DNA from: Candidatus Aldehydirespirator sp.
GTDB lineage: Bacteria > Actinomycetota > Acidimicrobiia > Acidimicrobiales > Aldehydirespiratoraceae
Length of the DNA: 64,000 nucleotides
NCBI GenBank assembly: GCA_965221605.1
Contig: CBDCSK010000004.1
Span: forward strand, 209,331-273,330
Direction: 5' to 3'
This document shows positions 13,855 through 46,191 of this stretch, piece after piece; the stretch's first letter is position 1, and each line of letters begins with the position of its first letter. Made by a program: the position numbers and the translations under genes. The notes below the pieces were generated by a model that searched no databases, was not told the DNA's origin, and was given only the letters and a program-made list of their open reading frames with translations.

Positions 13855-14973
13855 ATGGACTTCGAGCTGGGCGAGGAGGAGCAGGCCATCCGGGACCTGA
13901 CCGGACAGGTCCTGGCCGACATGTCCTCGCACGAGCGTCTGAAGGCCCTGGCCGCTGACGGCGACCACATGGACCGCAAAGCCTGGGCCGCGCTGGCCGG
14001 CACCGGCGTCGTCGGAGCCGCCGTGCCCGAAGCGCATGGCGGCCTGGGCCTGGGGTTCCTGGCCACCGCGGTAGCCCTGGAGGAGGTCGGTCGCCATGCC
14101 TCGCCCGTGCCGCTGCTGACCACGGCGGTGATGGGAGCTATGCCGGTCGCCGCCTACGGCACCGAGGCCCAGCGGGCGGCGTGGCTGCCCGGCATGGCCG
14201 ACGGCTCGGTGCTGGCCTGCGCCGCCCTGGCCGAGGACGGCACCGCCCCGGCCGAGCCGACCACCTCGGCGCGCGCCGACAACGGAGACTTCGTGCTGGA
14301 CGGCACCAAGGTGCTGGTCGCGGGCGGACTCGACGCCGACGTCGCCCTCGTTCCGGCCCGCCTCGACGACGGCGGGGTCGGGGTGTTCCTGGTTCCTGCC
14401 GGCACCGCAGGCCTCGAGCGTCTCGCGGTAGAGGTGACGACCGGCCGCCCGGAGGCCCGCTTCGAGCTGTCGGGCGTGAGGGTCGGAGCCGACGCCCTGC
14501 TCGGCGGCGGCTCAGCCGACGGCGCCGAGGTCGTGCACTTCATCGAGCGTCACGCCAACGTCGGGCTGTGCATGATGATGTCGGGCGCGGCCCGGGCCGC
14601 CATCGAGATGACCGCCGGCTACGCCAAGCAGCGCCACCAGTTCGACCGGCCCATCGCCACCTTCCAGGCGGTCAGCCAGCGGGCCGCCGACTCCTACATC
14701 GACGCCGAGGCCATCTGGCTGACCGCCTACCAGGCCGCCTGGCGCCTGTCGGCGGGGCTGCCCGCTGACCGTGAGATCGCCATAGCCAAGTACTGGGCCT
14801 CAGAGGGCGGCTACCGGGTGGTCCACGCCGCGGTGCACGTCCACGGCGGGGTGGGCGTCGACCGCGACTACCCGTTGCACCGACACTTCCTGGCCGCCCG
14901 TCACATCGAGCTCACCCTCGGCCACGCCGAGGAGCAACTGGCCGACCTGGGCTGCCAGATCGCCGCCGTCTAG
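13855..14973 (+). CDS. Acyl-CoA dehydrogenase-family protein (second subunit-like paralogue)
   Basis: 372 aa: MDFELGEEEQAIRDL..., QRHQFDRPIATFQAV, HGGVG. Lies 24 bp after the preceding ACAD gene. Confidence 0.85.
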   Translation: MDFELGEEEQAIRDLTGQVLADMSSHERLKALAADGDHMDRKAWAALAGTGVVGAAVPEAHGGLGLGFLATAVALEEVGRHASPVPLLTTAVMGAMPVAAYGTEAQRAAWLPGMADGSVLACAALAEDGTAPAEPTTSARADNGDFVLDGTKVLVAGGLDADVALVPARLDDGGVGVFLVPAGTAGLERLAVEVTTGRPEARFELSGVRVGADALLGGGSADGAEVVHFIERHANVGLCMMMSGAARAAIEMTAGYAKQRHQFDRPIATFQAVSQRAADSYIDAEAIWLTAYQAAWRLSAGLPADREIAIAKYWASEGGYRVVHAAVHVHGGVGVDRDYPLHRHFLAARHIELTLGHAEEQLADLGCQIAAV

Positions 14974-16545: not shown

Positions 16546-18366
16546 TCAATGGAGGGTCACGCCTTCGGGCGGGGGACGGAACGTGCCCCAGCATTCGATG
16601 GTGCCACCGGCGCGCAGGCCGCACGAGTGGCTCGGGCTTGTGGAGACCGACGTGAACCGCCCGCCCGGAGCGTCGAGCAGCCCCGCGTAGTCCAGGCCCC
16701 AGCACTCGACGGTGCCATCGGTGCGCACCGCGCAGGAGTGGTTGCGGGCAGCCGAGACGGAACTGAACGCGCCGGCGGGGGCCTCGAGGAGCCACCCATG
16801 GTCGAGGCCCCAGCATTCGACGGTGCCGTCGGTGCGCACCGCGCAGGAGTGGCTGGCCCCCACCGACACGGCGACGAAGTTCCCGCCGGGCGCGGGCGCC
16901 CAAGCGTCTCCCCGGGATCCCCAGCATTCGATGGTGCCGCCGGCGTGCAGCCCGCAGGCGCGGCTGTTGCCTACCGCCAGCGAAACGAGGGGCTCGTCTG
17001 CACCGCCGGTTCCGCCGATGTGGAGGATGGTCGTACTGTCACTGCTGGCCTGCACGTTGCTCCAGCACAGGGCCATGCCGTCGGCGTCCAGTACGCAGGC
17101 CTGGCCGCCTCCGGCGTGGACCGCAGTGAAGGGGCCGGCGGCCCGTTCGCCGGCACGATCTACGGCCTCCACGACGCGCTCGAGCACGGCCTGCACCTGC
17201 TCCGGAGAGTTGGGCGGCCCGACGCCCCAGCACTCGACGGTGCCGCCGGCGCGCCGGCCGCAGGAGAAGCCCGTTCCTGCCGCGACCGACATGAACCGTC
17301 CACTCGGGGCGTCGGCCTGGCCGCGGTCGTTGGCCCCCCAGCACTCGACGGTTCCGCCGGCTCGGACCCCGCAGCTGTGCTCCTCGCCGGTGGACACTGC
17401 GCTGAACGACCCACCGGGCGCCTCCAGTTGTGTGACGAAGCGCCGGCCCCAGCACTCGATGTTCCCGTCCACCCGGACCCCGCATGAGTGGTCCCAGCCG
17501 GTGGACACCGACGAGAACCGGCCCTCAGGCGGTTCGATCTGGCCCCAGTGATTGGCCCCCCAGCAGTCGATGGTGCCGCTGGTGCGCAGCCCGCAGGAAT
17601 GCCGGCCCCCGGTGTCGATCGCGCTGTACCGGCCGTGCGGGGCGTTGCTCTCATCGATGAAGCTGCGACCCCAGCACTCGGCGGTGCCGTCGACACGCAG
17701 ACCGCACGACTGGTCCCCACCCGCCGAGACCGACACGAACTGCCCGGCAGGGGCTTCGGCCTGGCCCCAGTGATTGTCGCCCCAGCACCGGACACCGCCG
17801 CCGCTGCGCAGCACGCAGGAGTGCCCGAATCCGGCCGCGACCCCGAAGAAGTGCCCGCCGGGCGCGATGACAGCCTCGGTCTTGGCGCTGCCCCAGCATT
17901 GGATGTCGCCGTCGACTCGCAGAGCGCATGAGTGGCTGTCGCCGACGGTGATGTCCACGTACTGCCCGCTGGGGGCTCGCAGCAGCTCCAGGAAGTCCAA
18001 GCCCCAGCATTCGATGGTGCCGCCCACCCGCAGGCCGCATGTGTGCCGGCGACCTGCGGACAGGGTCGTGAAGGTGCCCGCGGGCGCGTCGATCTGGTCG
18101 CTGTGGTTGGCGCCCCAGCAGACGGCGGTGCCGTTGGTGCGCAGCGCGCAGGTGTGGCGGCTGCCGGCGGCCACCGCCGCGAATCTCCCGCTTCCGGCGC
18201 GCTCCAGAGTCCCCGACTCCTCGACGACGCTGGCGACGTTGCCGGGATCGCTGGCGCCGTTCGCTCCGGAGACGGCTGGACTCTGCCCCCCGGTGCTGTC
18301 TCCGGAGCACCCGGCCACCGTGAGCATGAGCACCGCCGCGATGCATGCTGCCGATCGCAGCCTCAC
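16546..18366 (-). CDS. RCC1-like repeat lipoprotein (14 short repeats)
   Basis: Signal and lipobox MRLRSAACIAAVLMLTVAGC. 14 repeats of ~39 aa with consensus H(S/T)CG(L/V)RxDGTxECWG. Confidence 0.85.
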   Translation of the reverse strand: MRLRSAACIAAVLMLTVAGCSGDSTGGQSPAVSGANGASDPGNVASVVEESGTLERAGSGRFAAVAAGSRHTCALRTNGTAVCWGANHSDQIDAPAGTFTTLSAGRRHTCGLRVGGTIECWGLDFLELLRAPSGQYVDITVGDSHSCALRVDGDIQCWGSAKTEAVIAPGGHFFGVAAGFGHSCVLRSGGGVRCWGDNHWGQAEAPAGQFVSVSAGGDQSCGLRVDGTAECWGRSFIDESNAPHGRYSAIDTGGRHSCGLRTSGTIDCWGANHWGQIEPPEGRFSSVSTGWDHSCGVRVDGNIECWGRRFVTQLEAPGGSFSAVSTGEEHSCGVRAGGTVECWGANDRGQADAPSGRFMSVAAGTGFSCGRRAGGTVECWGVGPPNSPEQVQAVLERVVEAVDRAGERAAGPFTAVHAGGGQACVLDADGMALCWSNVQASSDSTTILHIGGTGGADEPLVSLAVGNSRACGLHAGGTIECWGSRGDAWAPAPGGNFVAVSVGASHSCAVRTDGTVECWGLDHGWLLEAPAGAFSSVSAARNHSCAVRTDGTVECWGLDYAGLLDAPGGRFTSVSTSPSHSCGLRAGGTIECWGTFRPPPEGVTLH

Positions 18367-18426: not shown

Positions 18427-20703
18427 TCAGTCGGGGAGCACCGCGATGCTGGAGAAGCACATCTCGTCGACGGTGCCCTCGTTCCAGGTGACGTAGCGGG
18501 GCTCGGGCATGTACTGCAGGGTGCGGTCCCACCAGCACTCGAAGCGCACCATGTCGCCCCGCTCGATGCGGATGTCCTCCACCGGCTCGTAGTTGAGCTG
18601 CCACTCGAAGTCCCACACACCGATGTCGAGCAGGATCCGTGCCTCGGGCGTGTCGGGATGGAGGGTCATGCGGTAGGCCGCGCCGAACTCGTGCATGTGG
18701 CCGAGGACGGTGTGGATGGTGCCGGTGTTGCGGGCCGGCAGGTCACAGGAGCTGTAGCCGATGCTGCCGTCGAGGTCGTCGTAGTCGTCGACGGTGGCGC
18801 CGCACTGGGCCAGCAGCAGGCCGGGGATGAGCGGGGCGAATGAGTCGTACTTCTCGCCGATCTCGGCCAGCACGTTGTCCCGAAGGCACAGGTTGACGTA
18901 TCCGTCGACGGTGGCGGCCCGCTCGGCCGCGACCGCGGCCTCCTCTGGGGTGCACGGCACCTCTGCGGGGGTGAGGTAGTTGCTGCCTGTGATGTGGGTG
19001 ATGCCTGCGGCGACTTCCTCGGCGGTGAGGGTGTCGAGGATTATCCATGAGCCGTCGGACGGGGTGTCGTGGTCGTAGTGATAGTGGATCTGGTTGACGA
19101 TCATGTCTCCGGGTGCCAGGTAGAGGCCGTACCCGTCGGGGTAGATGGTGGGGGACTGGCCCGGCGCCCAGCCCTGGATCGAGTACACGCCCTCGCTGTT
19201 GAGCCCCGACAGCCCGAAGCACGTCCAGCCCGGCTCGTCAGAGAGGCCCTGGGCCGCCTCGATCCTGTCCTCGGCTGCGATCTTGGCTGCGACCTCCTCC
19301 GCCGCGGCAGCCGGCACCCGGTAGACGATCGAGTGGTGGACGACCGGCACCTGGTCGGGCCTGAACTCGAAGCCCTTGACCCAGTTGCCGTCGCCCTCGG
19401 GATCGGCCACCTGGTGCACCTGGCAGCGGTAGTCGTCGTTCTTGACCGGCCAGCCGTCGGGACGGGAATAACCGGTGTACAGCCCGTCGCGGGGTCCGAT
19501 CTTCTGGTCCTCCTCGATTGGGATGATGGCCTGGAAGCGGGCCACCAGCGGGGTGCTGGGGCGCACGTCGAGGCCGCCGCCGGCATCGGCCCATGCCTTG
19601 ATGGCGGCCTTCTCGTCGTCGCTCAGGGCCCACTCGTGCACGTACTCCGGGCTCAGGTCCGACGGCAGCCAGGGTGGCATGAAGCCGATTCCGGTGACGA
19701 ACGCGATGTCGTCGGCGATGGCGGCCGCGTCTCCGGCGGTGTCGAGGGCGAGGGTGCTCCAGGCCGGGCCGCCGGTGGTGTGGCAGCTCACGCAGCGTGT
19801 CTCCAGGATGGGCTGCACGGTGGCTGCGAACCGGCCCTTCGCGATGTCAGAGACCGGGATCTCGCGGCGCAGGTCTCCGGTCGGCTCCGAGGCGAAGCCG
19901 ACCCGGTCGGCGACCATCTCGAAGGTCAGGGTCACCTCGTCGGAGGTGTGCACCAGCCGGGCGATGTTGATGGGTCCGACGTCGTAGTCGCTGGTCAGGA
20001 CCGTGGCCGACATGACTGCGGCGAGGGAGTCCGGCGTGATGACGACGGCGCCGGTGAAGGTCTCGGTGCGGGTGGTCTCCTTCACGGTCAGCTCGCCGGT
20101 GATGTCGATGTCGTAGCTGGCGCCGTCGGCGAACCCGGTGTCGAGGCCTTCTATCGAGGTGGGCCTGAACCGCACGAACGGCCAGTGGCTCGACTGGAGG
20201 TAGTCGTGGCGGATGCGCTTGTCCCGCAGCACCGAGTCGGACTGGAACATCTCGACGTTGATCACGATCTCGCCGATCCGGCTGGCGCCTAGGTCCACGA
20301 GGTTGACGGCGATCTCCCCGGCCATCACCGTCGTGGTGCCGACCGTGGTGCGCGACAGGCCACCGAGACGCTCCTGGATGTGATAGCTGGCCCGGGAGCC
20401 GGCCTCGGGCACGATCCGATATAGGCGCTCGGTCTCGACATCGAAGTCCTCGGGATCGTCGAAGTCCACCACCGGGGGAGCGAGCACCTCGCCTTGGGTG
20501 ACCAGCTCGGAACGGTCGATCTCACCGCCGGCGTCGCCGTTGACCGCGCTGCCGACGGCCACATCCACCGCATCCACGGCTACATCGACGGCGGTCTCGA
20601 CCGTGCCGGACCACTGGCTCCGGGTGAGGAACGCGGTCGTCCCGATGACGAGCACAGCCAGGATCGCGATCCGGCCCGCGTCAAGCCTCCGCCACCGGGA
20701 CAC
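18427..20703 (-). CDS. Membrane-anchored fusion protein: YceI-like domain + CxxCH (PSCyt1-like) motif + PHM/DBH-like copper type II monooxygenase domain
   Basis: 758 aa with an N-terminal TM segment (IAILAVLVIGTTAF). YceI-like SYHIQERLGG...ITGELTVKETTRTETFTG. FAATVQPILETRCVSCHTTGG. Cu-monooxygenase-like YRCQV, VVHHSIVY, QIHYHY, GHMHEFG and VDEMCF. Confidence 0.75.
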   Translation of the reverse strand: MSRWRRLDAGRIAILAVLVIGTTAFLTRSQWSGTVETAVDVAVDAVDVAVGSAVNGDAGGEIDRSELVTQGEVLAPPVVDFDDPEDFDVETERLYRIVPEAGSRASYHIQERLGGLSRTTVGTTTVMAGEIAVNLVDLGASRIGEIVINVEMFQSDSVLRDKRIRHDYLQSSHWPFVRFRPTSIEGLDTGFADGASYDIDITGELTVKETTRTETFTGAVVITPDSLAAVMSATVLTSDYDVGPINIARLVHTSDEVTLTFEMVADRVGFASEPTGDLRREIPVSDIAKGRFAATVQPILETRCVSCHTTGGPAWSTLALDTAGDAAAIADDIAFVTGIGFMPPWLPSDLSPEYVHEWALSDDEKAAIKAWADAGGGLDVRPSTPLVARFQAIIPIEEDQKIGPRDGLYTGYSRPDGWPVKNDDYRCQVHQVADPEGDGNWVKGFEFRPDQVPVVHHSIVYRVPAAAAEEVAAKIAAEDRIEAAQGLSDEPGWTCFGLSGLNSEGVYSIQGWAPGQSPTIYPDGYGLYLAPGDMIVNQIHYHYDHDTPSDGSWIILDTLTAEEVAAGITHITGSNYLTPAEVPCTPEEAAVAAERAATVDGYVNLCLRDNVLAEIGEKYDSFAPLIPGLLLAQCGATVDDYDDLDGSIGYSSCDLPARNTGTIHTVLGHMHEFGAAYRMTLHPDTPEARILLDIGVWDFEWQLNYEPVEDIRIERGDMVRFECWWDRTLQYMPEPRYVTWNEGTVDEMCFSSIAVLPD

Positions 20704-20807: not shown

Positions 20808-22535
20808 TCAGCCGGTGTAGGTCACGCCGTCGGGAGGGGCCCGCAGCGTTCCCCAGCATTCGACGGTGCCGTCGGCTCGCAGACCGCAGGTGTAGCCCTG
20901 GCCGACCTCGATCGCGGCGAACTCCCCGGCGGCGGGCGCCTCGTCGGTCCCCCAGCACTCCACGTTGCCGCGGGGGAGCAGGCCACACGAGTGCACTCCG
21001 GTCGAGACAGCCGTGAAGACGGCATCGGGGGCGTCGGTCTGTCCGTGCGAGTTGGAGCCCCAGCAGTCGGCCGTGCCGCCGGAGCGCAGCCCGCACGTAT
21101 GGCTGTCTCCGGCTGCCAGCGCGCTGAAGGAACCCGCCGGCGAATTCAGCCTCCCCGCGTAGGGGTTGCCCCAGCACTTGGCTCCGCCGGTGTCGAGGAT
21201 GCCGCAGTTGTGCGAGCTCCCTGCCGAGATGGCCATGAAGGTGCCGTCGGGTGCGTCGGCCTGTCCGTGCGAGTTGGAGCCCCAGCATTCGACGGTGCCG
21301 TCGTCTCGTAGGGCGCAGGCGTGGCCGACACTGGCCGTCACCGTGTCGAATTGTCCGTCGGGGACGTCGAGAACGCCGAAGCGGTCGTATCCCCAGCACT
21401 TGATGGCCCCCGCCGGGCGTAGGCCGCAGGCGAAGTAGTTCCCGGTGGCCATCGAGTTGAAACGCCCGCCGGGCGGCGCCATCTGACCCACCAGGTCGGT
21501 GCCCCAGCACTGGACGGTGCCGTCGGTTCGCAGCCCGCACGTATGGTTGCCGCTGGCAATCAGCGAAGCGAACGGCTCGCTGGGCGGTTCGGCTCCCGCC
21601 ACGAAGCGCCGGCCCCAGCATTGGATCGTCCCGTCCGTGCGGAGCCCGCAACTGTGGTCGGCCGCGGCCGCGACCGTCTGGAACTGGCCGTGCGGCGCAG
21701 GGGTTGCGCCGTAGGCGTTCGATCCCCAGCACTCGGCGGTGCCATCGGTGTGTACTCCGCACGTGTGGTCCACCCCGGCCGCCAGAGTCGTGAAGGTCCC
21801 GCTGGGAGCGCCCGACTTGCCCAGGTAGTCCGATCCCCAGCACTCGGCGGTGCCGTCGAGCGTCACCCCGCAGGTGTGGTCGGCTCCTGCCGCGATGGCG
21901 GTGAAGCGTTCCGTCCGCCGGTCGGCCTGTCCGAGCTCGTTGCTGCCCCAGCACAGCACCGTGCCGCCGCTGCGCAGGACGCAGGCGTGGTCGTGCCCGG
22001 CAGCCAACGCGGTGAAGTGCCCGCCGGGCGGCGTCAGGAGTCCGGCGTCGGAACCGCCCCAGCAGTCGACGTCGCCGTCGTCACGCAGAGCACAGGTGTA
22101 GTTGGCGCCCGCGGACACCGCGACGAACTCACCGTCGGGGACATCGGTCATTCCCGCGAAGTCCGCGCCCCAGCACTCGATACTGCCGTCGATCCTGATG
22201 GCGCAGTTGTGGCCGGGTCCAGCTGAGATGGCCGTGAAGTCTCCCTCGGGAGCGTCGAGCACCCCGCTCTGGTTGACGCCCCAGCAGTCGATGCCACCGT
22301 CGGCCCGGATCGCGCAGGTGTGCCAGAACCCGGCCGCCACCGCGATGAACGTTCCCTCGGCCGGCGCGGGCTCCGGGGTCAAGGGCTCGGTCACGGTGGC
22401 TGCCTCGCTGACGGTGGCCGTTTCTGAGAGTTCCTCCACCTGGGACCCGGCCGGATCGGGCGACGTGCCAGTCGAGCACCCCGCCGCCACCAGTGCCATC
22501 ACCACGAGCCAAACGGCTGACCGCCTCACAGGCAT
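20808..22535 (-). CDS. RCC1-like repeat lipoprotein (14 short repeats), paralogue of 16546..18366
   Basis: Signal and lipobox MPVRRSAVWLVVMALVAAGC. 14 repeats of the same HxCG(L/I)RxDGxxxCWG type. Confidence 0.85.
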   Translation of the reverse strand: MPVRRSAVWLVVMALVAAGCSTGTSPDPAGSQVEELSETATVSEAATVTEPLTPEPAPAEGTFIAVAAGFWHTCAIRADGGIDCWGVNQSGVLDAPEGDFTAISAGPGHNCAIRIDGSIECWGADFAGMTDVPDGEFVAVSAGANYTCALRDDGDVDCWGGSDAGLLTPPGGHFTALAAGHDHACVLRSGGTVLCWGSNELGQADRRTERFTAIAAGADHTCGVTLDGTAECWGSDYLGKSGAPSGTFTTLAAGVDHTCGVHTDGTAECWGSNAYGATPAPHGQFQTVAAAADHSCGLRTDGTIQCWGRRFVAGAEPPSEPFASLIASGNHTCGLRTDGTVQCWGTDLVGQMAPPGGRFNSMATGNYFACGLRPAGAIKCWGYDRFGVLDVPDGQFDTVTASVGHACALRDDGTVECWGSNSHGQADAPDGTFMAISAGSSHNCGILDTGGAKCWGNPYAGRLNSPAGSFSALAAGDSHTCGLRSGGTADCWGSNSHGQTDAPDAVFTAVSTGVHSCGLLPRGNVECWGTDEAPAAGEFAAIEVGQGYTCGLRADGTVECWGTLRAPPDGVTYTG

Positions 22536-22619: not shown

Positions 22620-23615
22620 CTACTCCAGCGGGAACGGCAACTGGAGCCACCACGGACGGTCGATCGCCTCGACCTGGCTGACCCACTTCACCCACCAGAA
22701 GCCCCGGCGTCCCGGGGCCACCAGCCTCACCGGCGCGCCGTGGCCCCGGCGCAACCGCTCGCCGTTGTAGCCGACGGCGAGGTACAGGTTGGCCGCGTCG
22801 CGGGCCGGGAACAGCCGGCTGTAGCCGGTCAGCGAGGTGACCTCCAGGGTGGGTCGGTCCAGTTCCGGCATCAAATCGGTGAGCGGCACCGCATCCCAGG
22901 ACTGGCGGCTCCACCATCCCCCGGTGCAGTCGAGGTCGGCCTCCAACGGTCTGGTCTTCTCGTGCAGCGCCTCCAATGCCACCGGGTTGCCTGCGATCGT
23001 CAGCTCCCAGTCCGAGGCAGGAACCCGGGGCGACCGGTCGTTGAGCCACATGGTTGTCGGCATCTCCGTCGGGTTGAACGAGGCGATCTCGTGGGAGCCG
23101 GTGAAGCGCCGGTTGTCGCCCACCACCAGTTGCTGGATCCCGTAGGCCGCGCCTGCGGCGGCCAGGGCGAGGCCCCCGCCGGTGAGTGCCCGGCGGTCGA
23201 GGTCGGTGATGCGGGGGCGTCCGGGCCGGCTCACGATGTGCCACACCACCAGAGGCGCCAGCAGCGCGGCCAGAAGCACGTGGGTCCACAGCGCCGACCA
23301 GTAGCCCACCCCGTGCCACAGCCCGGTGGCGTGCAGGATCCCCAGCACGACCGTGGCTGTCACCAGCGCGCCCAGCAGCATCGACAGCCACCGGGTGAGC
23401 CGGCGGCGCTTCAGCCCGGTGCGCACCGAGCCCCTGAGCTTGGCGGGCGCCAGCGCTAGCAGGCTCAGCCCGGCCAGGGCGTGCATGACCGTCACCCAGC
23501 GGGCCCAGCCGCTGCCGACGCCCCAGGACACCAGCCCGGTCACCGCGGCCACCGTCACCGCCACGGCCAGCAGCAGATCCACCCGTCGAGCAGTGAGCCA
23601 CTTGCTGAATATCAT
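22620..23615 (-). CDS. Molybdopterin-dependent oxidoreductase (sulfite-oxidase/YedY-MsrP fold) fused to an N-terminal multi-TM, His-containing domain
   Basis: 331 aa. About 130 aa of hydrophobic helices carrying conserved His (VMHALAG, ILHATGLWHG, WTHVLL, VVWHIV). Then the Mo-domain block LDCTGGWWSRQSWDAVPL and GAPVRLVAPGRRGFWWVKWV. Confidence 0.75.
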   Translation of the reverse strand: MIFSKWLTARRVDLLLAVAVTVAAVTGLVSWGVGSGWARWVTVMHALAGLSLLALAPAKLRGSVRTGLKRRRLTRWLSMLLGALVTATVVLGILHATGLWHGVGYWSALWTHVLLAALLAPLVVWHIVSRPGRPRITDLDRRALTGGGLALAAAGAAYGIQQLVVGDNRRFTGSHEIASFNPTEMPTTMWLNDRSPRVPASDWELTIAGNPVALEALHEKTRPLEADLDCTGGWWSRQSWDAVPLTDLMPELDRPTLEVTSLTGYSRLFPARDAANLYLAVGYNGERLRRGHGAPVRLVAPGRRGFWWVKWVSQVEAIDRPWWLQLPFPLE

Positions 23616-23633: not shown

Positions 23634-24779
23634 TTAGGCCGCTCCCAGGACGGCGTCGGCGATCCGGTCCTCGCAGGTGGCCGTGTCCCACCATGACAGC
23701 TGGAGTTGCTTGGCCCGCCGGAAGTAGAGCTGGATGTCGTACTCCAGGGTGAAGCCGATCCCCCCGAAGACCTGCTGGCACATGGCGGTGACGTCCCGGT
23801 AGGTGCGGCAGGCGAACAGCTTGGCCATGGGGGCCAGACGGTCGACCGGGCGCTCTGTGCTGTGTGCCCAGGCCGCCTCGTACACCAGCAGCCGGGCGCC
23901 GTCAAGGGCGGTGCGGGCGTCGGCCAGGTAGTGCGAGATGGCCTGGAACTCGGCCAGGGCCTTGCCGAACTGGTGCCTGGCCTTGGCGTACTCGACAGTG
24001 ATCTCCAGCGCGTAGGAGGCTCCGCCCACCGCCTGGGCCGCGGCCAGGATCGCGCCGGCGTGCATGGCTCGGTCCCAGGCCGCCCAGCCGGTTCCCGGCG
24101 GCGCGCCGGGATCTCCCAGTCTGGCCCCGGACTCCACGGCGACACCGTCGAAGGTGAGCAGGTACTGGGTGTCCGACCCGATCGACAGGCGCTGCTCCAG
24201 GCTCAGCCCCGCGGCGCTGGGGGGCACCACGAACAGGTCGATGTCGCGATCAGCGTCGCCGGTGCGGGCCAGGACCACCAGCAGGTCGGCTGCTGAGGCG
24301 AAAGGCACGTGGAGCTTGGCGCCGTCGAGCACGAACCCGTCGCCGTTGGCCCGGGCCGCCAGCTGCACACCCCGGGGCTTGAAGCCGCCACCCGGCTCCA
24401 GCCATCCCACGGTGGCGACGGTCTCACCCGACGCGATCGGACCGAGCAACTCGTCCCGCTGGCCCGGCGACCCGGCCTGCATGATCGCGCCCGCGGCCAG
24501 GACGCAGCTCACGAAGTGGGGGAGCGGAGCCAGCGAGCGGCCCAACTCCTCGTACAGCACCACCCCGTCGATCAGGCTCATGCCCGATCCGCCGTCGCTA
24601 TCGGGGACCATCAGGCCGCAGAGGCCCAACTCCCCGAAGCGGTCCCAGAGGTCGCGGGCGATGCCGTCGGGGTCGTCCTCGAGCTCCCGCACCCGCTCCA
24701 GAGGGGAGAACTCGCCGCACAGGCCCCGCACCATGTCGCGCAGCATGTCCTGCTCACCGGTGAAGTCCAGGTCCAGCAT
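23634..24779 (-). CDS. Acyl-CoA dehydrogenase
   Basis: Start trimmed to MLDLDFTGEQDMLRDMV (ATG at 24779, with GGGAGG upstream). C-terminal blocks ARHQFGKALAEFQAI and FGGIGFT. Confidence 0.85.
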   Translation of the reverse strand: MLDLDFTGEQDMLRDMVRGLCGEFSPLERVRELEDDPDGIARDLWDRFGELGLCGLMVPDSDGGSGMSLIDGVVLYEELGRSLAPLPHFVSCVLAAGAIMQAGSPGQRDELLGPIASGETVATVGWLEPGGGFKPRGVQLAARANGDGFVLDGAKLHVPFASAADLLVVLARTGDADRDIDLFVVPPSAAGLSLEQRLSIGSDTQYLLTFDGVAVESGARLGDPGAPPGTGWAAWDRAMHAGAILAAAQAVGGASYALEITVEYAKARHQFGKALAEFQAISHYLADARTALDGARLLVYEAAWAHSTERPVDRLAPMAKLFACRTYRDVTAMCQQVFGGIGFTLEYDIQLYFRRAKQLQLSWWDTATCEDRIADAVLGAA

Positions 24780-24825
24780 CACCGCCTCCCGGGTCGTGCA
24801 GGACCCAGCGGTTCCGAGCCGCTCA

Positions 24826-25887
24826 TCACGGCCGCCAATCGTCGCCGCGGCGCAGCCACGGGTTGTCCGACGACGACATGGGCAGGGCGACCCGGGCACT
24901 GCCGGTCGTGCACGTGCGGTCGTCGCCCCGCAGCATCAGGTCGAGTTCGACCCAGCCGCATCCGGTGCCGTCGATCGGGGTCGCGCTCACCCGGGTCGCG
25001 ATGGTCATCGTGTCGCCGGGGAACACCGGATCGTGCATGCGGAACGAGATCCGGCCCGGGCGGCCCTTCGGGCCCGTCCAGTCGGTGATGGCCCGCTCCA
25101 TCCAGGCCAGCTGGTTGGGGGTGTTGAGGAAGATGTCGCGGGTGCCGTTGCGCTCGGTGGCGAAACGGTAGTCGTGGTGCATGGGCCGCCAGTCACGGCT
25201 GGCCAGCGCCCCCAGCACGACGGTGGTGGCCGTGACGTCGTGGACGACTTCTGGCAGCACATCGCCGATCCGCACCTGGTCGTGGGCGGGGTCCGGCTTG
25301 GCCCGCGGGCCGGAGCTCCCGGCCGGTGGCGTGGACTCCGCCTGCCCCGACTCCTGGGGCTGCCCGGCCGGGTCGGCGTCGTTTCGGCGGTAGCCGAAAC
25401 CGGTGTAGGACTCCACGCCCACCAGCGCCCCGTGCTGGTTGTGGTACTCGACATCGATCACCCAGAAGCGGCCGGAGCCGAGCCGGGTCGTCTTGGGATC
25501 GCTCACGGACCGCAGCACCTGGTGGTGGCTGATCACGTCGCCGGGGCGCACGGGCTCGTGGAACACGATCGTGTTGTCGCTCATGATGGCCTCGGGCAGT
25601 TCCAGCCGTTCCTTGAGGTCGAAGTGGACCTGGAGAGCCACCTGTTCGGTGGTGGCGCCGGGCGCCCAGCGGTGGGGGCGCATCCACAGCGACAGCGTGC
25701 TGAGAGGCAGGATGCTCCCCCCGGCCAGCATCGCGGCCACGGCTGGTTCCCAATAAAGGGGGTTGCCGTTCTCGGTGGCGGCCAGCGTGTTCCAGCCGTA
25801 GCCCAGTTCGGCCGGGAAGTCGGCCGTCTCGGGGTACATGGGCTGCCCGATCAGCTCGGCCACGTCATCGGGCAGCGCAGTGGTCAT
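24826..25887 (-). CDS. Double hot-dog MaoC-like (R)-hydratase/dehydratase
   Basis: Start is MTTALPDDVAELIG (ATG at 25887), with a 4-bp ATGA overlap with the upstream CoA-transferase stop. Two hot-dog halves joined by a P/Q/S-rich linker. FPGDTM and RPGDVI motifs. Confidence 0.8.
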   Translation of the reverse strand: MTTALPDDVAELIGQPMYPETADFPAELGYGWNTLAATENGNPLYWEPAVAAMLAGGSILPLSTLSLWMRPHRWAPGATTEQVALQVHFDLKERLELPEAIMSDNTIVFHEPVRPGDVISHHQVLRSVSDPKTTRLGSGRFWVIDVEYHNQHGALVGVESYTGFGYRRNDADPAGQPQESGQAESTPPAGSSGPRAKPDPAHDQVRIGDVLPEVVHDVTATTVVLGALASRDWRPMHHDYRFATERNGTRDIFLNTPNQLAWMERAITDWTGPKGRPGRISFRMHDPVFPGDTMTIATRVSATPIDGTGCGWVELDLMLRGDDRTCTTGSARVALPMSSSDNPWLRRGDDWRP

Positions 25888-36476: not shown

Positions 36477-37679
36477 CTACCGGGCCCCAATGTCCACACT
36501 GGGTCTCAGCTGTATCCGCACGTTGACGGCCAGGATCAGGATTGCGCCCACGACGAACAGGTCGAACCGGGGGAGAGTGATCCCCAGCGCCATCAGGGCC
36601 AGCAGGGACACGACCGGGCCGAAACACAGCAGCGAGTTGACCGCCGCGTCCTCGGTCCTGATGTTCCCGACCCGGAGCGTGATGCCCGCCACCGACGCCG
36701 CCGCTCCGATCAACAGGGCGCCGAGAGCAGCCGCTGACGTCAGCGATCCGTCAACCTGCGGTGCCAGCATTCCGATGAGAATGTTCACAGGAAGGGCAAC
36801 TATTCGAGCCATTACATAACCCAGCATCGTGAGCCACACCAGCAAACGGCGATCCGGATCTCCTCGCAGCTCGATCGGTGTGGGGCTCTGAGTGCTGTAC
36901 TCGTCAGATTCGTCCGCCGACGCGTCGACTAGTGCGTAGTAGAGGGTCTTTCCGTACGCCAGGGTGCTCAGGACGCTCAGAGCAGCCAGCATCGAGGCAA
37001 CCAATGCGATCGCCATCCCGGCCACCGCCTCGAACGACACCAGGTCGGCGGCTGATCGGATCTGACCTCCGGCCTGGCTTCCCAACATACCCGCCAGCCC
37101 GATCCCCGCCAGCGCGATGAGGACCATCCGCTCCTTCGACATGGCGCCGGAGGCATGCCCGATCGCGGACGGTGCGCCGCGGAACCGTCGGTCACTGTCG
37201 TTGTGGCGGGCCAGCGTGTACACCAGGAACACCGGCCATAGCTCGAAGATCGTGGTTGCGATGGCCGTCTCGAGGATCGTGGCGGCCCACGTGAGGAAGC
37301 CGTAGTGAAGGCTGGAGACGAGGGCCCACACGATGGGCAGCTTGAGCACGCCGAGAGCGTCACCTGCTGGCAGGTGCCGAAGGATCACGGCCTTGTCGCC
37401 GCCAGTGCCTGCCCTCACTCGCCGAAAGTAGACGCAGTGTGTCCTTGGTCTTGTCAGACGCCGTCGCTGGCTCTCGCCCAGGCGTCCATTGACGTAGGTT
37501 GTCCTCGAATACAGCAGGAAGATCCCCGGTATCGCCACCTGCATCATCGTGATCAAGGCGTTGAAGTAGAACGGGTTGGTGTCCGAGGCGGTGACATGAA
37601 GCAGGGGAGGCGCGGACGCGTACAGCAGCGTGGCGGTGAGCACCAGACGGATCGCATGGCCGCGATGACTCGCCTTCAC
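36477..37679 (-). CDS. Polytopic integral membrane protein, function unknown
   Basis: About 10 hydrophobic helices. The GTG at 37679 overlaps the upstream stop (GTGA). The longer 458-aa ORF would run into the upstream gene. Noticeably less GC-rich than its neighbours. No motif recognised. Confidence 0.55.
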   Translation of the reverse strand: MKASHRGHAIRLVLTATLLYASAPPLLHVTASDTNPFYFNALITMMQVAIPGIFLLYSRTTYVNGRLGESQRRRLTRPRTHCVYFRRVRAGTGGDKAVILRHLPAGDALGVLKLPIVWALVSSLHYGFLTWAATILETAIATTIFELWPVFLVYTLARHNDSDRRFRGAPSAIGHASGAMSKERMVLIALAGIGLAGMLGSQAGGQIRSAADLVSFEAVAGMAIALVASMLAALSVLSTLAYGKTLYYALVDASADESDEYSTQSPTPIELRGDPDRRLLVWLTMLGYVMARIVALPVNILIGMLAPQVDGSLTSAAALGALLIGAAASVAGITLRVGNIRTEDAAVNSLLCFGPVVSLLALMALGITLPRFDLFVVGAILILAVNVRIQLRPSVDIGAR

Positions 37680-38962
37680 AGCGCGTCGGCGTGGGCTTGC
37701 AGCAGTGGGACGACCAGGTCGGGGTGCATGCGTCCCATGCCGCACTCGGCGGCGATGCCGAAGTGGGGGAGATGGCGGCGGGCAGCCGCCATCCGCCGTT
37801 TGGCGCCGGCGCCTCCGTCCTCGTGGTGCACCAGCCCGAGGTAGACGTGGCATCCGCCGATGCGGAGGCCGCGCAGCGGAGCGAAGTAGGCGTCGTCGTC
37901 ACGGTCGATCGGGACCGGCATGTGGACGAAGTCGATGCGGCGTCCCGAGTTGCCGACCACGAAGTTCGCCAGCGCCACGCACCGGGCGAGGTCGGCCGGT
38001 TCGACGAAGTGCTCGTCGTGCATGCTCCCGTAGCAGAAGTGGTAGCCGACCACGACGCCGTCGGGGATCTCCATGCTGATCGCCGGCGTCTGGAGCGCGA
38101 TCCGGGCCATGGGATCGCCGGCGGGTGCCCAGTCGAACAAGTCGTTGAAGACGACGGTCTCCCAGCACGCGTCCCACTGGATCGTGAGGTCGTCGTGGGG
38201 GATGGCCTGGCACAGCCGCCGGACCTCCTCGGCCATCGCCAGCGTGTAGGCCGTGTTCACGCGGTCGGCGTCGTCGGGGTCGATGATGTTGTCGGTCAGG
38301 AACTTGTGGACCGGGCGGCAGTGGTAGCACTCCGAGAAGTTCTCGACCGAGGCCTTCCAGTTGGCGTCATGGCGAGCCGGCGACTGGTACACCAACTCCA
38401 TCGCCTCCGGGCTCGGCGCCCAAGCCTCGATCTCGGCTCGCAGGCCCGGGTAGCAGTCCTCGAACGGCGGACTGTCGGCGTCCAGGCTCACGAACAGGGC
38501 GCCCGCGACGATCTCGAGCCGGACCGGCCGGAGCCCGAGCGTCGCCTGATCGAACCCGGCAACGTCCGCGGTGTGGGGCGCATAGAACAGCGAGCCGTCG
38601 GACGCGTACGTCCATGCGTGGTACGGGCATGTGAGCCAGCGGGCGTTGCCGCAGCCGGATGCGACCGCGTGACCACGGTGACGGCACACATTGTGGAAGG
38701 CGCGGACGGAGCCGTCGTCACCCCGGATGAGCAGCACTGCGTGATCGAGGATCGCCTCGACGGCGTAGTCACCCGGCTCGCTGATGTCCGCCTCGTGCCC
38801 GAGGCATATCCAACTCCGCTGGAAGATCCGCCCGTCTTCCAGCGCGAGCGTCGCCGCGGAGGTGTAGTCGCCATGAGCCAGGCCGGCCCGCATCCGGGCG
38901 GAGTCGTTGTCGCAAGCCACCTCGTGGAGGGCGGCGTACAGGCGAGCGGCCGGGGAGGTCAT
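37676..38962 (-). CDS. Chimeric protein: Rieske [2Fe-2S] oxygenase alpha-subunit N-terminal half fused to a MetE/CIMS-like (cobalamin-independent methyltransferase-like) C-terminal region
   Basis: Rieske motif CRHRGH...CPYHAW. Mononuclear-Fe motif NWKASVENFSECYHCRPVH. About 25 aa later come MetE-like blocks LTIQWDACWE (cf. IQIDEP), GYHFCYGSMHDE (cf. H-x-C-Y) and GIAAECGMGR (cf. PDCGLKTR). Confidence 0.6.
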   Translation of the reverse strand: MTSPAARLYAALHEVACDNDSARMRAGLAHGDYTSAATLALEDGRIFQRSWICLGHEADISEPGDYAVEAILDHAVLLIRGDDGSVRAFHNVCRHRGHAVASGCGNARWLTCPYHAWTYASDGSLFYAPHTADVAGFDQATLGLRPVRLEIVAGALFVSLDADSPPFEDCYPGLRAEIEAWAPSPEAMELVYQSPARHDANWKASVENFSECYHCRPVHKFLTDNIIDPDDADRVNTAYTLAMAEEVRRLCQAIPHDDLTIQWDACWETVVFNDLFDWAPAGDPMARIALQTPAISMEIPDGVVVGYHFCYGSMHDEHFVEPADLARCVALANFVVGNSGRRIDFVHMPVPIDRDDDAYFAPLRGLRIGGCHVYLGLVHHEDGGAGAKRRMAAARRHLPHFGIAAECGMGRMHPDLVVPLLQAHADAL

Positions 38963-40204: not shown

Positions 40205-40372
40205 TTTTCTTGGTTCATGCATCCTCAATCTTTCTCACCTGTTACGCCTTCATACAGGTCAGAGGCGGAATTGTTGCGTCATTCGTGCTCAGTGGGTATC
40301 ATCCGATCGCATCACTAAAGTGACAACAAAGTTGACAACGCCAGTTGGATTCTCTCGAAGGAATCAGATCCG

Positions 40373-41518
40373 ATGAGCCGATCGTTGACCGCCACATTCG
40401 TAAGGAATGTTAGCCAGCCCGGAGCCTACGGGGACGGCCGCGGAGGCTACGGGTTGACTCTGCGGGTTCGCCGCAGAGTCAACGGCGGGTTGTCGAAGGT
40501 GTGGGTGCAGCGGCTCCGCATAGACGGCCGCGCCACCAACCTTGGGCTCGGGGCGTACCCGCTGGTCAGCTTGCGTGAAGCCCGAGACGCCGCCTTTGAG
40601 AACCGGCGCTCTGTCGCGCATGGCATCAACCCGCGTACTGCTGTGACCCCCACCCTCGCTGATGCCGTTGAGGCGGTCATTGCGTCGCGCTCGACTTCAT
40701 GGAAGGACGGCGGCCGCTCCGCTGAGATATGGCGCTCCTCGGTGCGTAACCACGCCGCGGGCCTGCTGCAGCGCCCGGTGGACACCATCACCACCGGCGA
40801 TGTGCTGGCATGCATCACCCCGCTTTGGTCCACCGCCCATGACACCGCCAAGAAGGTTCGCCAGCGGCTCTCTTTGGCGTTCAGGTGGGCAATCGCGGCC
40901 GGGCATCGCCCAGATGACCCCGCGGGGGAGGCGCTGTTGGCGGCGCTGCCCCGCAACACCAGCACCCGTCGCCACATCGCAGCGTTGCCGCCGCACAAGG
41001 TGCCCGCTGCTCTCGCGGCTATCGACAACTCGGGCGCTCACCCAACCACCAAAGCCGCGATGTGGATGCTGGCTTTGACCGCGACCCGCTCCGGTGAGGT
41101 CCGAGAAATGCGCTGGAACGAGATCGACGAAGACATCTGGACGATCCCAGCCGAACGCACCAAGATCGGCCGCGAGTTCCGGGTGCCGCTGAGCCGCCAG
41201 GCGCTCGCCGTACTCGACGATGCGCGCTGCTACAGCGACGGCAGTCCCGGCTCGCTGGTGTTCCCCTCGGCACGCGGTAGGCAGATCACTGCCGAGGCCC
41301 TCTCCAAGCTCTGCCACGAACTCGACCTGGAAATGACCCCCCACGGGTTCCGCTCGAGCTTCCGGGACTGGGCCGCGGAGTCCGGCGTCTCCCGGGAAGT
41401 GGCCGAGGCGTGTCTGGCGCACGTCATCAAGAACACCGTCGAAGCTGCCTATCGGCGCTCTGACCTGTTGGATCAGCGCCGCGAGGTCATGGACGCCTGG
41501 GCGCGCTACATCACATAA
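40373..41518 (+). CDS. int: Tyrosine-type (P4-like) site-specific integrase
   Basis: 381 aa. N-terminal DUF4102-like YGDGRGGYGLTLRV...WVQRLRIDGR. C-terminal catalytic blocks ALTATRSGEVREMRW, HGFRSSFRDWA and LAHV...AYRRSDL. Confidence 0.9.
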   Translation: MSRSLTATFVRNVSQPGAYGDGRGGYGLTLRVRRRVNGGLSKVWVQRLRIDGRATNLGLGAYPLVSLREARDAAFENRRSVAHGINPRTAVTPTLADAVEAVIASRSTSWKDGGRSAEIWRSSVRNHAAGLLQRPVDTITTGDVLACITPLWSTAHDTAKKVRQRLSLAFRWAIAAGHRPDDPAGEALLAALPRNTSTRRHIAALPPHKVPAALAAIDNSGAHPTTKAAMWMLALTATRSGEVREMRWNEIDEDIWTIPAERTKIGREFRVPLSRQALAVLDDARCYSDGSPGSLVFPSARGRQITAEALSKLCHELDLEMTPHGFRSSFRDWAAESGVSREVAEACLAHVIKNTVEAAYRRSDLLDQRREVMDAWARYIT

Positions 41519-41668
41519 CCCCAGCACCTCTCAACAGGTTGGGTCTCCTCCACCGTGATCTGGTCCAACCACGCCTTGATCTGCTCACAGGAGCCCTCGC
41601 TGCCGTTGTCGGCCGTGTCAGCGCCTACGGTGACCGGCAAACTCAACGCCAGGTGTTCCAATCGCCCG

Positions 41669-41935
41669 CTAGCGATCAGAGGCGAACCCGAGCACGGTGT
41701 TAGCTGCAGCGCTGGCGGCTTTGATCGCAAGAGCGCGGTCAGCTTCGCCGTCCCAGTCGAAGGCAGCAAAGGCTGCTAGGAACGCCGATCTCCAAGCCGG
41801 CCAGCCGCTCCCGGCGTCCAGGTGGGTACTCCAGTCAGGCACATCGGCGATGTGGGCCGCTAGGGCACGTTCAGCAGCGGCTCTCATCTCGGGCCAGCAG
41901 TCGACGGCGGTAGCATCGCACGGTTCGCGTGTCAC
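41669..41935 (-). CDS. Small hypothetical protein, translationally coupled to the upstream SLH protein gene
   Basis: The GTG at 41935 overlaps the upstream stop (GTGA, 41932-41935). 88 aa with no recognisable motif. The longer 121-aa form would overlap the upstream gene by ~100 nt. Confidence 0.4.
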   Translation of the reverse strand: MTREPCDATAVDCWPEMRAAAERALAAHIADVPDWSTHLDAGSGWPAWRSAFLAAFAAFDWDGEADRALAIKAASAAANTVLGFASDR

Positions 41936-42789: not shown

Positions 42790-42865
42790 CCATGGCTACA
42801 CACGACTTCCTGCGCTCCTACCATCGTCGCTGGCAGACTGCTGCCGTAACCCGGAGGCTCTGACC

Positions 42866-43219
42866 ATGACCAGCGCCGGCTTCTTATCGGTAGGTCGCGC
42901 AACACTCACCTTCGCAGCGCTGACCGTGATGCTGGCGGCTGGCTGCTCAGGCGAGCCTGAACATTGCATTCACTACGACGCGGCCCGCATCGCTCTCAAG
43001 GAAGCGGATGCGCTGGAGGTCCGACATGGCCGTGATGTAGACGCATGGCCTGCCGACGCCAGAAACGACCTGGACCACTGGCTAGAGGCGTACATGGATG
43101 CCGCTTCCAGAATGTGGGCAAACGCCCCAACCGACTCCGCGTGGGCACGAGAGCAACCCACGCTTGACGACATGCTCGACCCGGCATGGCTAGAAAGAGG
43201 CAGAAGAACCTGCGAGTGA
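42866..43219 (+). CDS. Small hypothetical lipoprotein
   Basis: 117 aa with lipobox MLAAGC. No other motif recognised. Confidence 0.5.
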   Translation: MTSAGFLSVGRATLTFAALTVMLAAGCSGEPEHCIHYDAARIALKEADALEVRHGRDVDAWPADARNDLDHWLEAYMDAASRMWANAPTDSAWAREQPTLDDMLDPAWLERGRRTCE

Positions 43220-43237
43220 CCCAGCAGGTCCCCAGTG

Positions 43238-43849: not shown

Positions 43850-43852
43850 CGG

Positions 43853-44561: not shown

Positions 44562-44566
44562 TTTAG
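44562..44566. repeat. Target-site duplication TTTAG (left)
   Basis: TTTAG lies immediately outside the left IS1380 terminus. The same pentamer is at 46187-46191, immediately outside the right terminus. Confidence 0.8.
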
Positions 44567-46186: not shown

Positions 46187-46191
46187 TTTAG
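46187..46191. repeat. Target-site duplication TTTAG (right)
   Basis: See 44562-44566. Confidence 0.8.

Follow-up and report, generated by a model that had tools for sequence, protein, structure and literature searches.

We describe a gene of Candidatus Aldehydirespirator whose product is very probably a haem-c-fused bicopper protein of the type of peptidylglycine alpha-hydroxylating monooxygenase (PHM). The gene lies in a 64-kb stretch of high-GC DNA (approximately 0.70 GC), and this whole stretch is referred to here as the window. It is a complete open reading frame (ORF) on the minus strand (18427..20703), which starts with GTG and encodes 758 amino acids and a stop. The protein consists of a transmembrane (TM) anchor, a linker, a YceI-like barrel, a cytochrome c domain and a C-terminal bicopper domain similar to PHM and dopamine beta-hydroxylase (DBH). 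We consider it probable that the product is an extracytoplasmic, membrane-tethered and self-contained redox enzyme, in which haem c feeds the copper site CuH and monooxygenase chemistry follows.

An earlier sequence-only reading of the window had proposed the location of the ORF, the single N-terminal TM anchor and the order of the domains. Translation, Kyte-Doolittle hydropathy, Pfam, the AF2 model and Foldseek all agree with it, and the order TM, YceI, cytochrome c, PHM-like is established in this protein. Computed here are the domain folds, the equivalence and conservation of the copper ligands, the conservation of the haem motif, the export signals of relatives, the spacing from the haem to CuH, and the linkage to cytochrome maturation (ccm) genes. 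The coordinates of motifs within the ORF were checked by translation, and all features of the gene given below lie on the minus strand.

The copper domain

The PHM-like domain proper comprises approximately 340 residues (residues ~417-758), fewer than the C-terminal ~400 amino acids that the sequence-only reading had assigned to it. The AF2 model was built on an alignment of 29 orthologues (identity as low as 56%) and has a pLDDT of 79 overall and mostly >85 in the C-terminal half. As modelled, the two-subdomain beta-sandwich fold of PHM is present. When the model was compared with the PDB using Foldseek, PHM (3mll) ranked first (E 2.7e-11, probability 1.00, TM 0.59-0.64 on target) and human DBH (4zel_B) third (E 6.8e-11). 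Sequence profiles give the same match. A profile of 121 sequences, some of them representatives of 50%-identity clusters from the wider family, aligned by hhalign with the catalytic core of rat PHM (PHMcc) at 98.95% probability (E 8e-17) over 269 columns that span both subdomains. The reference PHMcc sequence was checked against PDB 5wm0_A, and its native numbering is used throughout.

The N-terminal, or CuH, subdomain (residues ~417-560, 19024..19455) is recognized by Pfam PF01082 and by the PHM alignments. Its H456-H457 pair (19333..19338) aligns with the PHM CuH ligands H107-H108 and is kept in 120/121 and 121/121 sequences. The third CuH ligand, H172, corresponds to H540 (19084..19086; 121/121), where QIHYH lies on QVHYG of PHM. 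The C-terminal, or CuM, subdomain (residues 650-758, 18430..18756) is identified from the PHM alignment and, in relatives, by PF03712. Here H669-M-H671 (18691..18699) supplies the equivalents of the CuM ligands H242 and H244, each kept in 119/121. The triplet E747-M748-C749 (18457..18465), kept in 119-120/121, places M748 on the CuM ligand M314, and this methionine is itself conserved in 119/121 diverse relatives.

Thus the ligands proposed from the sequence alone, an HH pair (VVHHSIVY) with a later His (QIHYHY) for CuH and an H-x-H (GHMHEFG) with the Met of VDEMCF for CuM, map one-to-one on all six of those of PHM in the hhalign profile alignment, alongside the Foldseek fold match. The CuH half of this mapping is recovered independently with shallower profiles; a 13-sequence profile covered the CuH half alone (21% probability, E 0.001). 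All six ligands (H456, H457, H540, H669, H671 and M748) are invariant in the 29 orthologues and present in 119-121 of the 121 diverse sequences, while the neighbouring H542 and H545 vary. The positions aligned with Y79 and Q170 of PHM are likewise kept (119/121 and 117/121). The motifs H-x-H-x-x-G and D-E-M-C are common to both proteins, which bears out the remark that the EMC context is that of animal PHM. Sites equivalent to CuH (His3) and CuM (His2Met) are therefore a prediction from aligned residues, as is the activity: two copper ions would be bound per chain and a C-H bond would be hydroxylated using O2.

Four cysteine positions of PHM are also matched in the deep-profile alignment, C427/C495/C723/C749 lying on C81/C126/C293/C315. 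The last two, C293 and C315, which we take to be a disulfide pair in PHM, correspond to C723 and C749. The protein has 10 cysteines, two in the haem attachment motif and eight in the C-terminal domain, and all are invariant in the 29 orthologues.

The domain departs from PHM in several respects. Between the subdomains is a three-helix insertion of ~68 amino acids (residues 582-649, 18757..18960), which faces a gap in PHM and contains C584, C606 and C634. The AF2 helices span residues 586-598, 608-619 and 623-633, and the cysteines of the insertion are kept in ~83/121. An extra helix in the CuH subdomain (residues 465-484) also faces a gap in the PHM alignment. The third difference concerns the substrate site. 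R240, N316 and Y318, presumably the anchors of the peptidyl-glycine carboxylate and backbone in PHM, align in the deep-profile comparison with L667, F750 and S752. Because these anchors are replaced, the substrate is not expected to be peptidyl-glycine, and the protein should not be filed as a peptidylglycine hydroxylase.

The cytochrome c domain

Upstream of the copper domain is a small domain (residues 292-375, 19579..19830), predicted to be a mono-haem cytochrome c of class-I type. Its CVSCH haem c attachment motif (C304/C307/H308, 19780..19794) is invariant in 29/29 orthologues. The best Pfam match is Cytochrome_CBB3 (PF13442), found in all 29 members; the window protein scores 24.3 bits against a cut-off of 27, and the relative P0260 exceeds the cut-off with 34 bits. 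Comparison by hhalign with Pseudomonas aeruginosa c551 gave 68% probability (E 4.7e-5) and brought both CxxCH and the C-terminal helix into register. The orthologues also share an invariant M342-P-P-W345 (19669..19680). By its likeness to the PMPP motif of c551, M342 is a candidate for the distal (sixth) axial haem ligand.

The sequence-only reading had called this segment Planctomycete-cytochrome-like. That label should be dropped, as the likeness of F-x3-V-x-P-I-L-x3-C-x2-C-H to Planctomycete cytochromes is at the level of the motif only and PF07635 is absent from the Pfam matches (E up to 0.1) of the window protein and the 29 members.

A large bacterial family

The window protein has 261 homologues, among which the full-length architecture is retained to 55% identity. 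The closest are from metagenome-assembled genomes (MAGs) of Acidimicrobiales, from 92% identity downwards, and are annotated at source just as 'YceI family protein'. A scan of GTDB species representatives returned 136 relatives, and the best 80 are nearly all from Acidimicrobiales or a taxon within it, with labels that include Ca. Aldehydirespirator, Aldehydirespiratoraceae, Microthrixaceae and Ca. Microthrix. Several of these 80 have isolate names that resemble marine-sponge MAGs. Aldehydirespiratoraceae is the former UBA11606 family and includes sponge-symbiotic as well as free-living lineages (PMC11706023). NCBIfam has no match for the window protein.

The C-terminal domain alone is far more widespread. 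A profile of this domain was searched against 1.84 billion representatives of 50%-identity clusters and matched 5,559 clusters at E <=1e-3, 2,554 at <=1e-10 and 460 at <=1e-30. The details given here for the family are those of 120 whole-domain proteins within the best 150 of the 5,559, and its taxonomic breadth is known from a few names (Meiothermus, Acidimicrobiales) and metagenome sample identifiers. Members are labelled in databases as 'YceI family protein', 'monooxygenase' or hypothetical, and some are tagged with Pfam domains.

Among the 150 best matches listed, the overwhelming majority are secreted proteins of bacteria that include a haem c domain. Exactly one CxxCH is found upstream of the domain in 95/120 whole-domain relatives, a cytochrome c profile built from the family matches 97/120, and in 89 of the 95 an M-P motif follows 32 or 34 residues past the haem His. 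Between the haem His and the CuH His-His pair the sequence distance is nearly fixed, with a median of 138.5 residues (interquartile range 136-140, range 133-160, n=94); in the window protein it is 148. Judged from these sequences, a large family of secreted bacterial proteins has the cytochrome c and PHM-like pair as its core, and YceI is the add-on. The fusion, which had been described as unusual, is consequently the rule as far as its haem c and PHM-like parts are concerned, and only YceI is accessory. Given the haem c fused at a fixed spacing and the bacterial host, we argue for a protein-borne donor over ascorbate as the physiological reductant.

Recent transfer from an animal (sponge) host was considered, since sponge symbionts occur in the clade. 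It was rejected: identity to PHM is merely 13-14%, and the family is broad, bacterial and equipped with a bacterial-type cytochrome c module.

Export and haem attachment

The N-terminus carries a hydrophobic segment, LDAGRIAILAVLVIGTTAFLT (residues 7-27, 20623..20685), which is predicted to be an N-in signal anchor. Four Arg lie ahead of it, the protein has no other Kyte-Doolittle peak (window 19, >1.6), and the AF2 model has a helix at residues 9-26. Positive charges that precede a TM segment mark its cytoplasmic side (the positive-inside rule). Because four Arg precede the sole TM segment, the protein is predicted to be oriented N-in with the remainder outside the cytoplasm. The anchor is followed by an acidic, V/D/A-rich linker of low complexity (residues 32-88, 20440..20610), which varies in length among close relatives; AF2 pLDDT is <50 at residues 24-67. 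In the relatives, each complete-looking N-terminus that was inspected begins with a signal peptide or a lipoprotein signal. The N-in anchor, the leaders of the relatives and the eight invariant cysteines of the C-terminal domain support the predicted location outside the cell.

The genes of System I cytochrome c maturation are often adjacent. Among loci with 51-74% identity and sufficient upstream sequence, ccmA-B-C-E-F-G-H lies immediately upstream on the same strand in 36/52. The gap from ccmH has a median of 56 nt, and the YceI-cytochrome c-PHM gene is the last same-strand gene. This adjacency supports the identity of the domain as a c-type cytochrome and, weakly, a role in cytochrome maturation. 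The gene of the window clade (>=80% identity, 25 loci) has been relocated away from ccm. CcmF homologues were found on contigs of 3,840,682; 3,758,362; 3,551,383; 3,600,072 and 3,742,418 bp, and since these sizes are identical to those of window-clade orthologue contigs, the haem-attachment system is very probably retained elsewhere on the same chromosomes. The N-in anchor, the ccm linkage and the CcmF homologues together indicate export to the compartment of haem attachment, with a maturation system available.

Actinobacteria are usually described as users of System II. In Acidimicrobiales, a complete System I operon, ccmABC(D)EFGH, is found 2-10 kb upstream at L002, L004 and 34 loci among L029-L083, and in these 36 the YceI-cytochrome c-PHM gene is its final member. 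Despite their clear orthologues of Acidimicrobiales type, the L062 and L081 contigs bear the labels 'uncultured Gammaproteobacteria bacterium' and, for L081, 'Acidobacteria bacterium' (L062 also has the ccm operon upstream); they are probably mis-binned or mislabelled.

The YceI barrel

A YceI-like beta-barrel (residues 99-265, 19909..20409) precedes the cytochrome and copper domains, as the sequence-only reading had it. PF04264 matches with E 2.6e-14 and 54.3 bits (cut-off 23.7) over profile positions 5-150 of 150, and 29/29 members match. A profile search of the PDB detected the YceI structure 1y0g at E 7e-5. Foldseek matched the domain to six YceI structures with TM 0.66-0.79; for 7bwl, 1wub, 1y0g, 5ixh and 2x32, E is 1e-9 to 1e-6 and TM 0.71-0.79, and both X158 structures of Saccharophagus degradans, 2x32 and 2x34, are among the matches. 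By analogy with these proteins, a lipophilic or isoprenoid ligand is predicted for the barrel. Among the 120 whole-domain relatives YceI is carried by 18, and in all of these it comes first, followed by cytochrome c and then the PHM-like domain.

One unfused homologue has a separate YceI gene nearby. In a Meiothermus sp. MAG (GCA_033762915.1, locus L086, 8001-11478), a cytochrome c-PHM-like gene of 495 amino acids, named 'monooxygenase', is followed by an ORF of 124 amino acids. Genes for a glutaredoxin-like protein, a CDGSH iron-sulfur protein and a standalone YceI (180 amino acids) are on the opposite strand, the last 1.4 kb from the cytochrome c-PHM gene. This single instance may represent a small redox neighbourhood. 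A general association of standalone YceI genes with unfused homologues was rejected, as L086 is the one clear case beside a weak one in 77 loci. The YceI profile detects the standalone Meiothermus YceI, which served as a control.

Points against a haem-driven copper enzyme

Several results weigh against the interpretation of the protein as a PHM-type copper enzyme fed by a fused haem and a YceI module. The window protein alone is below threshold for both Pfam families of the copper domain (PF01082, E 0.011, 16.3 bits, cut-off 30; PF03712, E 0.046, 13.6 bits, cut-off 23), and plain sequence and profile searches of the PDB find PHM only at E 0.46-1.7. Similarity to PHM itself becomes significant solely with the deep profile and in the fold search. 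In the hhalign comparison with c551 the Met loop is shifted, so that the axial assignment of M342 is offset. The model of the isolated cytochrome domain (pLDDT 70.5) gave a best Foldseek E of 4, which is not significant. Because most family members lack YceI, the barrel is an accessory that the core chemistry does not require, and at 77 unfused metagenome loci a single weak standalone YceI candidate was found nearby. Finally, ccm adjacency is seen in 0/25 loci of the window clade, with no ccm gene within the 64-kb window. Synteny extends to the genes downstream of the target as well, in ~30 loci. Because of this downstream block and of the 0/25, the adjacency is partly inherited gene order and may reflect ancestry over function.

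Other observations bear on how these scores are to be read. PF01082 matches 28/29 orthologues (best E 8e-7) and PF03712 matches 13/29, weakly. Above the PF03712 cut-off of 23 bits are the relatives P0260 (38.1 bits), P0190 (34.4), P0167 (31.1) and P0152 (29.5). Because several relatives pass this curated cut-off, homology to the family is also significant through intermediates. For the cytochrome domain, 12 of the 20 Foldseek matches listed are cytochromes c, none of them significant, and the model lacks haem; inconclusive fold searches are common for haem proteins modelled without haem.

Proposed mechanism and alternatives

Animal PHM and DBH, which serve in neuropeptide amidation and in noradrenaline synthesis, draw two electrons from ascorbate. 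From the architecture described above we infer a different supply, together with the loading of metal and haem, the direction of electron flow, the monooxygenase chemistry, the type of substrate and the role of YceI. The catalytic part would be a non-coupled binuclear copper monooxygenase of PHM/DBH type, with CuH (His3) and CuM (His2Met) on two beta-sandwich subdomains. The covalent, His/Met-ligated haem c would be reduced from the respiratory chain, take the place of ascorbate, and pass electrons one at a time to CuH. At CuM, O2 would be bound and activated for the hydroxylation of a C-H bond in a non-peptide substrate. Of the roles conceivable for the YceI barrel, the likeliest would be to hold an isoprenoid quinol that feeds the haem, and the alternative to present a lipophilic substrate. 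The first of these roles is a tentative suggestion by analogy. The proposal that the fusion implies a lipid-like ligand or a haem donor is well supported in its haem-donor part and tentative as regards YceI and a lipid.

In its most extended form, the proposal makes the protein an all-in-one prokaryotic counterpart of the animal system of cytochrome b561, ascorbate and PHM/DBH. Electrons would pass from YceI quinol to haem c, CuH and CuM, and the non-peptide substrate, hydroxylated outside the cell, would probably be lipophilic or an envelope component. The cytochrome c-PHM core would represent a large bacterial class of C-H hydroxylases, so far overlooked and driven by the respiratory chain, which may be ancestral to the eukaryotic, ascorbate-dependent enzymes. 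That all of these elements hold together we regard as distinctly unlikely.

The alternative role of YceI is that of a substrate presenter, which hands a membrane lipid or isoprenoid to CuM while the haem is reduced by a soluble or membrane respiratory cytochrome. Candidate substrates would include a polyprenol, the side chain of menaquinone, a carotenoid, a hopanoid or a fatty amide. The matched YceI structures are described with lipophilic ligands (1wub, TT1927b, polyisoprenoid-binding; 7bwl, an antibiotic sequester; 5ixh, BcnA), the polar anchors of PHM align with the hydrophobic or small L667, F750 and S752, and the protein is tethered at the membrane surface. Moreover, short forms without YceI keep the haem, which must be reducible without it. 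The position of the barrel speaks for the donor role instead, as YceI adjoins the cytochrome, the electron donor, and is on the far side from the CuM subdomain in sequence. No conserved lipid-metabolism genes are nearby, and where YceI and cytochrome c are documented together, in a single case, the combination is interpreted as a redox module (PMC8981238). Substrate presentation is somewhat unlikely as the role of the barrel.

A second alternative dispenses with the organic substrate. The protein would then be an extracytoplasmic oxidase or an electron sink that handles reactive oxygen species, in which electrons from the quinol pool or from cytochromes would pass by way of the haem to copper and reduce O2, superoxide or peroxide. 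In its favour, neither a substrate gene nor a precursor peptide or pathway is conserved beside the fused or the short forms, and, as weak evidence, SOD and AhpC/Redoxin genes are within 10 kb in the close relative L001. In Escherichia coli, yceI is presumably next to yceJ, whose product is a paralogue of CybB, a cytochrome b561 reported to be a superoxide:quinone oxidoreductase, and this too counts in its favour. The full set of PHM ligands is kept, including the Met of CuM and the Y79 and Q170 positions, which argues for PHM-like chemistry. The 68-residue insertion is expected near the interdomain cleft, presumably the active-site cleft as in PHM, and would suit a substrate lid. In addition, PHM and DBH couple the reduction of O2 tightly to hydroxylation of the substrate (PMC9064607). 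An oxidase of this kind is improbable.

A third alternative is an accessory role in System I cytochrome c maturation, or in the handling of haem or copper, in Acidimicrobiales; the gene would be co-transcribed with ccmABCEFGH, and its product would act on haem, on apocytochromes or on the redox state of the Ccm apparatus. In its favour is the adjacency at 36/52 loci, in families of 51 to 71% identity, as the final same-strand gene just past ccmH. CcmF presumably draws on quinol when it reduces the haem of holo-CcmE, and a YceI that binds quinol could fit this. The window clade has no ccm-adjacent locus while it apparently keeps CcmF elsewhere, and the short forms, to which most of the family belongs, have neither ccm nor another recurrent neighbour in 80 loci. 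The downstream block is syntenic too, so the adjacency may be inherited, and the simplest explanation is a c-type cytochrome gene beside its own maturation system. We judge the accessory role very improbable. Least probable of all is that the C-terminal domain is a non-catalytic binding beta-sandwich of PHM/PNGase-F type with a relic His/Met pattern. The Pfam scores of the window protein are sub-threshold, and proteins without copper, PNGase F among them, also have the PHM fold. Against this, retention of the ligands in 119-121/121 while nearby His drift indicates strong purifying selection on them, and obligate pairing with a redox haem domain at a fixed spacing would be senseless for a binding module.

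A haem-fed copper monooxygenase is consistent with the surroundings of the short cytochrome c-PHM forms. No recurrent partner gene was found in 80 metagenome loci, a weak negative, as the contigs are mostly short. The best recurrent neighbour occurs in 8/80 and resembles a housekeeping gene of methylmalonyl-CoA-mutase type. Shadow ORFs that overlap the target were removed before neighbours were counted, as they otherwise give spurious clusters of conserved neighbours. The absence of recurrent neighbours fits a self-sufficient enzyme.

Neighbouring genes and other features of the window

In the window clade, the minus-strand gene order is a molybdenum cofactor (Moco) oxidoreductase, an RCC1-repeat protein, the target, a second RCC1-repeat protein and ROK. 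These neighbours are kept in 19-22 of 23 close relatives and in 1-2 of 57 others. A functional operon of the Moco/RCC1/ROK string was therefore rejected, as synteny confined to close relatives is treated as shared ancestry. Promoter, terminator and tandem-repeat scans around the gene gave nothing useful. Long antisense and out-of-frame ORFs that overlap the target, such as 19069-20292 (+, 407 amino acids), are artefacts of the high GC content and not genes.

Two genes upstream of the target, at 22620-23615 (-), is a gene for a protein of 331 amino acids that is kept in 21/23 window-clade loci. An N-terminal region of ~150 amino acids with ~4 hydrophobic, His-containing helices (no Pfam match) is fused to PF00174 (E 9e-16). 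The product looks like a membrane-anchored enzyme of sulfite-oxidase/MsrP type, possibly with a built-in haem b membrane module. The flanking RCC1_2-repeat proteins have 575 amino acids and 13 repeats (20808-22535, -) and 606 amino acids and 11 repeats (16546-18366, -). Both have a lipoprotein-like signal that ends in AGCS, and of the close relatives 22/23 keep them, as does 1/57 of the others. Repeats of the RCC1 class are eukaryote-like. A published list of eukaryotic-like domains for the sponge-symbiont lineage does not include RCC1 (PMC11706023).

Catabolic genes surround the target in the window clade and in the P0064 genome, and encode acyl-CoA dehydrogenase, CoA-transferase, MaoC-hydratase and HpcH/HpaI aldolase. 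They include 13855-14973 (+), 23634-24899 (-) and the flanks of L001 and L005, and are ordinary genes of lipid or organic-acid breakdown, not evidently linked to the target. Near a low-GC segment, the genes for a Rieske ring-hydroxylating oxygenase alpha subunit (37676-38962, -) and a luciferase-like monooxygenase (50906-51937, -) are likewise ordinary catabolic genes unrelated to it. In that segment, at ~40300-50900, the GC content falls to 0.61-0.67 from ~0.70. It encodes a tyrosine integrase (40373-41518, +), an SLH-domain protein (41932-42789, -) and a DUF4062-TPR protein of 1,266 amino acids with a weak PIN-TPR-GreABC match (46726-50526, +), and at its edge is a tRNA-Ala(GGC) gene (50789-50862, -). 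It is probably an integrated island of ~10.5 kb at a tRNA gene, possibly related to defence.

Significance

A search of the full-text literature that can be searched, which leaves most subscription journals uncovered, returned no characterized prokaryotic homologue of PHM or DBH, with or without haem. A review of metalloproteomes places PHM and dopamine beta-monooxygenase among the eukaryotic and not the prokaryotic cuproproteins (PMC7435645). The catalytic core described here belongs to a known superfamily; the novelty is in the cytochrome c donor built into the protein, in the YceI module, in a substrate site that differs, and in the setting, which is bacterial and extracytoplasmic. The evolutionary picture changes accordingly, as a family regarded as eukaryotic has 5,559 matching clusters, the best listed of which are overwhelmingly bacterial. 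This points to an abundant, predicted extracytoplasmic oxygenase in soil bacteria and sponge-associated Acidimicrobiales.

The long-range transfer of electrons from CuH to CuM in PHM and DBH, and their strict substrate coupling, are still debated. To our knowledge, all mechanistic work on these enzymes uses ascorbate, a diffusible donor. A protein with the complete ligand set and a covalent haem donor at a fixed spacing would provide a natural system in which the injection of electrons into CuH could be triggered and followed optically.

Comparison with known systems

The closest characterized counterpart is PHM, the catalytic core of PAM (PDB 1PHM, 1OPM and 3MLL). The two share the fold, the six copper ligands, the DEMC and H-x-H-x-x-G motifs, four cysteines and the Y79 and Q170 positions, and PHM is also located outside the cytoplasm or in the secretory lumen. 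They differ in that identity is 13-14%, the window protein adds the cysteine-containing helical insertion of 68 amino acids and the CuH helix, and the substrate anchors of PHM are replaced. The window protein has a fused haem c where PHM uses ascorbate, lacks the PAL lyase domain, and belongs to a prokaryotic host.

DBH, tyramine beta-monooxygenase and MOXD1 (4ZEL) have the same core and, like the window protein, a beta-rich ligand-binding domain at the N-terminus ahead of it. In DBH this domain is DOMON, whereas YceI and cytochrome c occupy the position here; we found no evidence of a relation between DOMON and YceI. The C-terminal dimerization domain of DBH is lacking in the window protein, and DBH depends on ascorbate. 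Copper nitrite reductases fused to redox partners (see PMC9358711) and pairs of cellobiose dehydrogenase (CDH) with lytic polysaccharide monooxygenases (LPMOs) share only the wiring, from a haem domain to copper, and their folds and chemistry are unrelated. The role of CDH as a haem donor to LPMOs is discussed in PMC8981238.

The same wiring is found with YceI in Cbp2D and Cbp2E of Cellvibrio japonicus and the X158 proteins of Saccharophagus degradans, which are secreted and combine a YceI-like X158 domain with mono-haem cytochrome c domains X183/X132 (PMC8981238; 2X32/2X34). X158 binds polyisoprenoids, with ubiquinone-8 in one structure. In vitro, the X183 cytochrome by itself can reduce LPMO copper monooxygenases and sustain their activity. 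In Cbp2D, which may donate electrons to LPMOs, X158 adjoins the cytochrome c domains and has been proposed to hold a quinol, and the activation of LPMOs by Cbp2D in vivo is left as an open question by the same paper (PMC8981238). Cbp2D carries CBM2 and FN3 modules, whereas the window protein is without a carbohydrate-binding module. The LPMO acts in trans and has a mononuclear histidine brace in an unrelated fold, in contrast to the PHM-type bicopper domain fused in cis here. The window protein would thus be a second, independent case of YceI and cytochrome c wired to a copper monooxygenase, beside Cbp2D and the LPMOs.

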